A DNA stretch of 64,000 bases from Escherichia phage WPEC1: sequence record PV659873.1. One strand, given 5' to 3'. Below the pieces are notes generated by a model. It ran no database searches, was not told where the DNA came from, and was given only the letters and a program-made list of their open reading frames with translations. The first letter of the stretch is position 1. Each line of letters begins with the position of its first letter. Shown here piece after piece: positions 50,959 through 52,619 of the stretch. Made by a program: the position numbers and the translations under genes.

Positions 50959-51918
50959 TTAGATTCCAATGATAGTTGCTGCTCGTTTATCCTTGGATCT
51001 GGTGTTTGCTCTACTACGTGACAAACCGCCGCAAGATTCACAACGAATGATATCGAAAGAACTTACCGCAGTGTGGTATTGTTTACCAGTAACAACGTGA
51101 ACGTGATCACTGCCACAACGAGAACAACGGACCTTCTCATCTGGGTAATAAGCGGATAAGTTAGGATGCTGTGGAATCCACGGAAGGATTTTCATATACA
51201 AATCACGGAGTGAAACAACATCACCATCATTGTAAATCTGCATACGTTCAAAAGCATCACGATCACCTTCACAACATGCTTTCCATAAAGGGAACCCCTC
51301 GTTATCCAGTTTTTCACTTTCTGTTTCGAAATATGCTCCCATTTCTTTAAGGGAGTTGGAAGGAAGTGCAAATTGTTTCTTAGCTGCCTTCAATGTATCA
51401 ACAACTACATAATTAGAAGGAGGAGCCATATCGTGATATGCAAATCGTTGGTTAATGTATGCACGGTCAAACTTATATCCGTTGTGTGCCACAACTACAT
51501 CTGCCTCATTCAGAAGGTTCCAAAGATCTTGGCAAAGCTCCCAATCATCTGTATGATCAATATCAAAAAGAGGATAAGAAGACAAGTTCTTACCTTCCAC
51601 TTCACCAGTATACAGGTCAGCAGAAGAGTAAGATAACAAATAACCCCTACGAATTACTTGATCTGGAGAAATGAAGGCTTTGAATCGACGGAAAGTATAT
51701 GCAATCTCTGGTGCAGTTTCAACATCAATAATTTTAATAACTGGTTGTTTCTTTTTAACTGGTTCTTGTTTACTTGCTCCAAATCGTGCAAGGAAATCGT
51801 TCACTGTGCTTTTTCTTGTTGGACTACCTAAAACAATTGCTGCAATATTACGAGAAGACATACCCTCTGCACTCATACTAAGGATATCTGCTTTCTGCTC
51901 TTCTGTTAATCTGCTCAC
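50959..51918 (-). CDS. DnaQ-like 3'-5' exonuclease with N-terminal HTH
   Basis: IDVETA (Exo I), VVAHNGYKFD (Exo II) motifs; N-terminal helix-turn-helix-like segment. Confidence 0.6.
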   Translation of the reverse strand: MSRLTEEQKADILSMSAEGMSSRNIAAIVLGSPTRKSTVNDFLARFGASKQEPVKKKQPVIKIIDVETAPEIAYTFRRFKAFISPDQVIRRGYLLSYSSADLYTGEVEGKNLSSYPLFDIDHTDDWELCQDLWNLLNEADVVVAHNGYKFDRAYINQRFAYHDMAPPSNYVVVDTLKAAKKQFALPSNSLKEMGAYFETESEKLDNEGFPLWKACCEGDRDAFERMQIYNDGDVVSLRDLYMKILPWIPQHPNLSAYYPDEKVRCSRCGSDHVHVVTGKQYHTAVSSFDIIRCESCGGLSRSRANTRSKDKRAATIIGI

Positions 51919-52232
51919 TCTGCCTCCTGTTGTGAGATGTATGACTGAAGCATACTCTCAAATGTTGTATCGTCATTATCCCAGCGTTTCATGTATACCA
52001 ACTGGAAAATTGTTTCTATCCATTCATCTGTTGTCATATGGACTTCTTCTCCATCCCAAGAAGTAAAATTAACACCATCTGGGAACCACGAGTAGTAAGT
52101 ATCTTTAACTGTTTGGAAAAGTTCTGCTTGAGTTTTACAAGCTGAAAGAAGATTAAAACAAGTAATATCTCCGAACTTAATATCAAAATCTTGATAAGGT
52201 CGGATACTATCTGTTTTATCTCCCATTAGCAT
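51915..52232 (-). CDS. hypothetical protein; possible C-terminal fragment of a 5'-3' exonuclease (FEN/RNase H-like)
   Basis: LMGDKTDSIRPY resembles the GDxSDNI segment of FEN-family nucleases; frame is open 58 codons upstream of ATG 52232 with no start codon, ending at tandem TAA TAA (52407-52412). Confidence 0.3.
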   Translation of the reverse strand: MLMGDKTDSIRPYQDFDIKFGDITCFNLLSACKTQAELFQTVKDTYYSWFPDGVNFTSWDGEEVHMTTDEWIETIFQLVYMKRWDNDDTTFESMLQSYISQQEAE

Positions 52233-52619
52233 CTGATATGCTAACCAGTAACTGCCCCAACCTTTAACTTCTTTCTTTTTACCTTTATCTACGATCCATA
52301 TATCGCCAATAGACTCGTCAATAAGAATTATATCTGGATTTTTAAATACTCCATCCTCTTTGTAGAAATAAATCCCTCCATAAGAAATGCCCCTTGCGGG
52401 GCATCTTTATTAGAACACACTACCTAGTGTAGTGGAACGTTGTGTTACAGGCTCCAGCACCACTCGCAGAGTGTTTCCTGGTGTAGTGCTCATAACCAGA
52501 ATCTTACCACCTTCAATCAGATCAAAAGACACTTCAATAAAGAGAAAACATCAAAACCAGACAAATAAAATGTCAGATTTGTTTAAGAAACTTGTTTAAT
52601 CCAACACGAGGAACATACT

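Follow-up and report, generated by a model that had tools for sequence, protein, structure and literature searches.

The truncated FEN-like exonuclease gene in the genome record of Escherichia phage WPEC1 is very probably an artefact of contig concatenation

Does the genome record of Escherichia phage WPEC1 (PV659873.1) contain a disrupted 5'-3' exonuclease gene, a gene that is expressed in an unusual manner, or a feature that is no property of the phage? The stretch analyzed, referred to here as the window, comprises 64,000 nucleotides of this record. An initial annotation had noted a possible truncated exonuclease gene at positions 51915-52619, next to what appeared to be a structured noncoding divergent region of 390 bp, and had proposed gene disruption, a noncanonical start, or programmed readthrough as explanations. 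The comparisons reported here make it very probable that the truncation of the nuclease gene arose through the concatenation of contigs into a phAPEC8-like "genome" and is not a property of the phage.

The individual elements named in the initial annotation were all present in the sequence, and only minor details had to be corrected. The open reading frame (ORF) at 51915..52232 lies on the minus strand, encodes 105 amino acids, and begins with MLMGDKTDSIRPY; the peptide IILIDESIGD is in frame with it. According to the ORF listing, this frame is open for 58 further codons (52233..52406), among which there is no ATG, GTG, or TTG, and the tandem stops TAA TAA are found at 52412..52407 on the minus strand. 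The frame is indeed open again past these stops, over 46 codons rather than the 44 claimed. The hairpin ATGCCCC-GCAA-GGGGCAT (52387..52404) has 7 pairs and scored as terminator-like, and the repeated motif GTGTAGTG was located in two local copies, at 52427 and 52481; its total in the window is 7 copies, compared to 1.5 expected. The 390-bp region as a single structured noncoding unit did not stand, as it was found to consist of four separate parts, namely, 137 nt of exonuclease coding sequence, a foreign shard of 155 nt, 75 nt from the 3' end of another ORF, and a 20-nt spacer. A promoter scan of positions 52000-52800 gave nothing above chance and no promoter-like site upstream of the exonuclease fragment, and on this basis a genuine divergent promoter region was rejected. 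A tRNA remnant was also rejected as the source of the "structured" region, as ARAGORN detected no tRNA in the window.

The 105-amino-acid ORF is nested inside a larger 3' fragment of a flap endonuclease (FEN)-like 5'-3' exonuclease gene, which extends over 51915..52369 on the minus strand, corresponds to codons 208 to 357 of a 357-codon frame (stop codon at 51915-51917), and lacks the first 207 codons and the start. Its native downstream neighbor is intact: a DnaQ-like gene annotated as DNA polymerase exonuclease subunit (50959..51918, minus strand; Pfam RNase_H_2, 9.5e-10), whose GTG start overlaps the FEN stop codon in an arrangement that is identical in phAPEC8 and WPEC4. Annotated homologs of the fragment are the 229-amino-acid "putative exonucleases" phAPEC8 G377_gp004 and WPEC4 CDS214. 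The protein sequence encoded in the window is identical to F80..E229 of this annotated protein, equivalent to F208..E357 of the 357-residue frame, and matches phrog_107 "exonuclease" (7e-27). Database homologs are mostly 331 to 375 amino acids long, and tblastn revealed in both phAPEC8 and WPEC4 a conserved frame that stays open over all 357 residues, with 86% identity to the homolog P0002. The true gene therefore comprises about 357 codons or more, of which the window retains the last 150.

The proposed assignment of the ORF to the FEN/5'-3' exonuclease type was supported by its homologs. The N-terminal domain of 5'-3' exonucleases, PF02739, was detected in 5 of 19 homologs (best E value, 8.6e-7). 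An AlphaFold model of the full-length homolog P0002 (pLDDT, 94.2; pTM, 0.85) was compared with the Protein Data Bank (PDB) using Foldseek, and the top 14 matches were all Escherichia coli ExoIX (3ZDA-3ZDD) and T5 D15 FEN (1EXN/5HMM), with a probability of 1.0 and target-normalised TM-scores of 0.48 to 0.62. Profile match and predicted fold thus place the intact homologous gene in the FEN/5'-3' exonuclease family. Within the PDB, only structure prediction followed by Foldseek recovered this family; sequence searches with a single protein or with a profile of 19 sequences gave no FEN match, and Pfam assigned no significant family to either the 163-amino-acid in-frame fragment or the annotated 229-amino-acid protein. 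In the helix-3-turn-helix region, the fragment carries LMGDKTDSI, which fits the pattern GDxxD(N/S)I; the residues G256, D257, and D260 of this segment are invariant or nearly so across 19 to 28 homologs. Compared with phAPEC8 gp004 and WPEC4 CDS214, the window fragment thus retains the GDKTD motif (D257 and D260 of the 357-residue frame), whereas the 207 N-terminal residues and the start codon are absent. The homolog alignment confirmed the suspected loss of the N-terminal catalytic region, as the window holds only residues 208 to 357. Missing with it are the family-invariant residues D10, E165, D167, D168, D195, and D197, which we take to be the FEN metal-binding carboxylates, so that the window copy has no N-terminal PIN-like nuclease domain with metal-binding acidic residues.

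A blastn search against 50,697 phage records identified the window as a phAPEC8-like Phapecoctavirus, with the Escherichia phages WPEC2 (PV691511), WPEC4 (PV682947), and WPEC6 (PV763039) as the closest records (99.9 to 100%). Relative to phAPEC8 and WPEC4, the fragment has an identity of about 99% as far as position 52369/52372, where the homology ends; in all 133 records that match the exonuclease locus, the match ends at window position 52372, and none of the 50,697 phage genomes covers the junction. The segment 52370..52528 instead aligns, inverted, with the 3' end of a P-loop ATPase gene and with a site for which some records give a terminator annotation. Base-by-base comparison with three WPEC4 loci resolved the region into exonuclease context up to 52369, ATPase and terminator sequence at 52370-52524, and tape-measure context from 52525 onward. 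The middle piece, a foreign shard on the minus strand, is exactly 155 nt long and matches WPEC4 30151-30305 (2501-2655 in locus coordinates), at the end of the ATPase gene CDS067, at 100%, with 0 mismatches. Both junctions (52369|52370 and 52524|52525) are blunt, with only 2 to 4 nt of ambiguous microhomology.

From 52525 the window is 100% identical to WPEC4 and corresponds to phAPEC8 from 74747 onward. It opens with the final 24 codons and the stop of a small ORF (52525..52599, plus strand) that was assigned as the phAPEC8 gp105 homolog by collinearity; gp105 spans 74603..74821 in phAPEC8, and the 5' 144 nt of its counterpart have been removed by the join. The usual place of this ORF is between the tail assembly chaperone and tape-measure genes, and it is followed here by the native 20-nt spacer (52600-52619) and an intact gene for the tail length tape-measure protein (52620..54608, plus strand; 662 amino acids; TTG start), which is collinear with and of the same length as phAPEC8 gp104 (74842..76830).

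The three pieces are 99.4 to 100% identical to WPEC2, WPEC4, and WPEC6, and in WPEC4 each of them occurs in an intact, normal context. The ATPase gene of phAPEC8 is located at about 140 kb, some 90 kb from the exonuclease locus. The exonuclease and tape-measure loci are separated by about 24.5 kb in phAPEC8 and by about 25 to 28 kb in other Phapecoctavirus genomes. The phAPEC8 interval that is skipped at the join includes the genes for a recombination exonuclease, ligase, 11 tRNAs, terminase, portal, major head, sheath, and tube, and a part of it (sheath and tube) sits inverted at window positions 1-3122. Exact searches for both junction strings in IMG/VR gave 0 matches, and the product of the 105-amino-acid ORF was not on record in an exact look-up in public assemblies.

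The content of the shard offers an explanation for each of the unusual elements next to the fragment. Positions 52370..52524 hold about 37 final ATPase codons, TAATAA at 52412..52407, the terminator hairpin, and 17 nt downstream of it. The tandem stops are the double stop of the ATPase gene itself, and the 13 in-frame codons that precede F208 (RCPARGISYGGIY) are the antisense of the downstream flank of that gene. The 46 open codons past TAATAA consist of the ATPase C terminus (...MSTTPGNTLRVVLEPVTQRSTTLGSVF) followed by 8 antisense codons of the gp105 fragment beyond 52524|52525, and the two local copies of GTGTAGTG are the antisense of codons for S-T-T-(P/L)-G, a peptide that is repeated in the ATPase C terminus. 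That the shard and the exonuclease fragment share one frame is due to chance. The hairpin at 52387-52404 has the properties of a rho-independent terminator, with a 7-bp stem that includes 5 GC pairs; on the minus strand it begins 2 nt after TAATAA and is followed by TTTCTTAT. The same site is annotated as a terminator in the related records ASO2A and Schickermooser. The hairpin and its flanks are the same base for base as the terminator of the Phapecoctavirus ATPase gene (phAPEC8 gp014 homolog) in WPEC4, whereas the copy in the window has been cut off from its gene and lies inverted between two unrelated loci. It is part of the displaced ATPase fragment and not native to the exonuclease locus.

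The whole length of the window was compared with the complete phAPEC8 genome by local blastn, which revealed a patchwork of blocks in both orientations. Window block 1-3122 corresponds to phAPEC8 74294->71173 (inverted) and is followed by two shards of 155 nt (3123-3277 and 3278-3432). Blocks 3493-6820 (phAPEC8 132062->128740) and 7572-16823 (127952->118707) precede three shards of about 150 to 158 nt (16824-17282), and then come blocks 17283-43110 (7352-31918) and 43112-52372 (40648-50229), the match of the ATPase shard at 52407-52528 (140147->140026, inverted), and block 52525-63641 (74747-85863). The block that ends at 3122 and the shard that ends at 3277 close with 77 nt that are exact reverse complements of each other, and an exact reverse-complement copy of the 77 nt with which block 7572-16823 closes is found at 17051-17127.

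Several of these sites merit a closer description. In the contig-join cluster at 3046-3492, the block end at 3122 equals phAPEC8 71173, inside the homolog of the minor head protein gp110; the two 155-nt shards at 3123-3432 stem from one locus with a 3-nt offset, the following block starts at 3433, and the 77-nt reverse-complement overlap at 3122 creates an artificial palindrome of about 230 nt. In a second cluster (16744-17303), the block end at 16823 equals phAPEC8 118707, and the next block begins at about 17283 (phAPEC8 7352). One of the intervening shards is a 150-nt piece of phAPEC8 61660-61808, and the two others, of about 152 to 158 nt, derive from phAPEC8 118623-118802, one of them with the exact 77-nt reverse-complement overlap; WPEC4 contains numerous repeats of these shard families at 39-45.6 kb. 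Between window positions 43110 and 43112 there is a jump from phAPEC8 31918 to 40648, and the dTDP-rhamnose/sugar-epimerase cluster and its neighbors are absent. WPEC4 carries phAPEC8 31921-38542, then 40414-40645, as a separate block with the same two breakpoints, and because of these shared breakpoints the jump was interpreted as a contig join rather than a deletion. At 44798, the window lacks about 320 nt that phAPEC8 has at 42335-42654, in gp160, which is located between the nrdB and nrdA homologs. The two sides overlap by 1 nt, and either natural indel variation or another join could account for the loss. No or only weak phAPEC8 matches were obtained for 6821-7571 and 17910-21764, the first of which is a gap shared by WPEC4 (17270-18022); both segments probably contain ordinary variable or replaced small genes of the lineage.

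The sibling records have a similar composition. WPEC2, WPEC4, and WPEC6 share with the window the breakpoints at phAPEC8 ~7352, ~31920, ~40648, and ~118707 as well as the families of 149- to 155-nt shards, whereas none of them has the joins seen in the window at phAPEC8 50226 and at 74747 or makes the same use of the ATPase-terminator shard. The exonuclease, ATPase, and tape-measure loci occur in the three siblings at mutually inconsistent distances and orientations. In the first 50 kb of WPEC4, about 60 shards of 75 to 164 nt, drawn from six loci and present in both orientations, follow one another in a run of 6.7 kb (38.9-45.6 kb). In the GenBank "complete genome," this run is annotated as dozens of hypothetical proteins of 30 to 60 amino acids. 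A literature search on WPEC2, WPEC4, and WPEC6 found no papers.

The shard length corresponds to 2 x 77 + 1. In a de Bruijn graph with k = 77, a bubble node that contains a single variant has a length of 155 nt. Exact 77-nt overlaps between pieces that are placed side by side in arbitrary orientation indicate concatenated graph contigs, and the features to be expected from such a concatenation were all observed: a 155-nt filler, 77-nt overlaps, pieces that are intact elsewhere, and a junction absent from all other collections searched. The overlaps were found at the two other clusters; the shard at 52370..52524 has no k-nt overlap with either of its neighbors. In the scenario that we consider very probable, a large contig would end at 52369|52370 inside the FEN-like exonuclease gene. 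The next unit would be a mini-contig of 155 nt (2k + 1, k = 77) that carries the ATPase 3' end and terminator in reverse orientation and that probably represents a bubble or a tip in the graph, and another large contig would begin at 52524|52525 within the small ORF that precedes the tape-measure gene. The assembler type, the value of k, and the act of concatenation itself we infer from sequence signatures alone. The contig end at phAPEC8 50226 lies in the middle of a unique gene, with no repeat to explain the break, and could reflect low coverage or population heterogeneity.

These data bear on the alternatives as follows. The open frame across the region had invited the idea of a functional protein that is produced from a noncanonical start within 52233..52406 or by readthrough of TAATAA, and the intact gene of the relatives does apparently start with ATT or ATC, but about 620 nt farther upstream, outside the window. 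We regard such recoding or unusual initiation as having virtually no chance of being correct. The codons before residue 208 come from the inverted 155-nt ATPase piece, and the peptide RCPARGISYGGIY has no counterpart in any homolog; the fragment lacks the invariant residues D10, E165, D167, D168, D195, and D197, and no promoter-like site precedes it. Readthrough would call for one conserved protein on both sides of the stops, whereas the 5' side is the ATPase C terminus and the 3' side is the terminator followed by exonuclease residue 208, that is, parts of unrelated proteins. The homolog alignments thus refute recoding and a noncanonical start at the join. Nor is there support for a base-calling error at TAATAA, which the initial annotation had suggested should be excluded by resequencing, as the stops belong to the ATPase-gene piece and a third, unrelated locus lies beyond it.

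The remaining alternatives accept the join as physical DNA. A genuine rearrangement in a viable phage, in which illegitimate recombination moved blocks, added a 155-nt filler, and left a truncated FEN gene as a real pseudogene, would agree with the clean junctions and their 2 to 4 nt of ambiguous microhomology, and filler DNA is generally known from illegitimate junctions. We nevertheless consider it highly improbable, given at least three junction clusters in the window, at least three cut genes that are intact in relatives (gp110 at phAPEC8 71173, FEN, and gp105), fillers of 2 x 77 + 1 nt along with exact 77-nt overlaps with block ends, and near-identical siblings that are each scrambled differently and contain kilobases of shards. 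A faithfully assembled but nonviable molecule, such as a subgenomic DNA, defective or rearranged, that was present in the lysate, or a library chimera is equally improbable. In its favor, a contig that breaks off within a unique gene gives a hint of heterogeneity or anomalous coverage at phAPEC8 ~50226, and shards of 2k + 1 usually represent variant bubbles, which would suggest a mixed population. Yet the shard at the join is unrelated to both flanks, no single molecule explains the dozens of repeats of the same shard families in WPEC4, and a chimeric read would not give a length of exactly 2k + 1. It is very unlikely, although slightly less so, that the break in the FEN gene and the 2k + 1 shard reflect real heterogeneity of the lysate, for example, a subpopulation with a truncated FEN gene near the tail module; if this were true, some DNA molecules would actually contain the junction. 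Taken together, the contig-concatenation artefact remains the reading that we favor. Of the disruption proposed initially, the truncation is real in the sequence, but it would stem from concatenation and not from a biological event.

An additional observation concerns the intact FEN-like gene of the relatives. In WPEC4 and phAPEC8, its frame is open over about 377 codons and contains no ATG, GTG, or TTG before the annotated internal ATG (residue 129). Its 5' region (phAPEC8 NC_020079 50462-50905; WPEC4 PV682947 4105-4549, minus strand, in locus coordinates) contains a Shine-Dalgarno (SD)-like GGGGGA followed by an in-frame ATT (TAA TTA GGG GGA AAT ATT AGC GGT TAT). At the same position, phage muut has AGGAGG-TAAT-ATT and Klebsiella phage phi1_175008 has GGAGGG-TAGT-ATC, and among Vequintavirinae homologs, Cronobacter phage CR8 has AGGAG...ATG GGT TAT and phage FV3 has AGGAGG...TTG. 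The downstream peptide (S)GY(I/P)(L/V)(I/V) is conserved in the Stephanstirmvirinae genes and CR8. The sequence comparison suggests that the Stephanstirmvirinae FEN genes use a rare ATT or ATC initiation codon and that their annotation is systematically wrong: a protein of 229 amino acids has been called, the N-terminal region has been left out, and small ORFs such as phAPEC8 gp266 are spurious. A -1 frameshift from an out-of-frame ATG in "TATATGTCAAC" of the intact gene was also considered and rejected, as there is no slippery heptamer and the conserved SD and ATT/ATC lie upstream in frame. A literature search for an ATT start in phAPEC8 yielded nothing specific.

In terms of quality control, the window and no fewer than three of its siblings that GenBank lists as "complete genomes" appear to be scrambled concatenations of k = 77 contigs, and truncations, odd intergenic regions, inverted repeats, and synteny breaks in such records should be distrusted until they have been compared with a collinear Phapecoctavirus reference. 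In terms of biology, nothing in the join region works as a unit, because the fragment has no start, promoter, or N-terminal catalytic carboxylates, TAATAA and the hairpin belong to the ATPase gene, and the open frame is coincidental. There would thus be no disrupted, recoded, or specially regulated nuclease gene at the join, and the one item of possible biological interest is the ATT/ATC start of the FEN gene, which lies outside the window.
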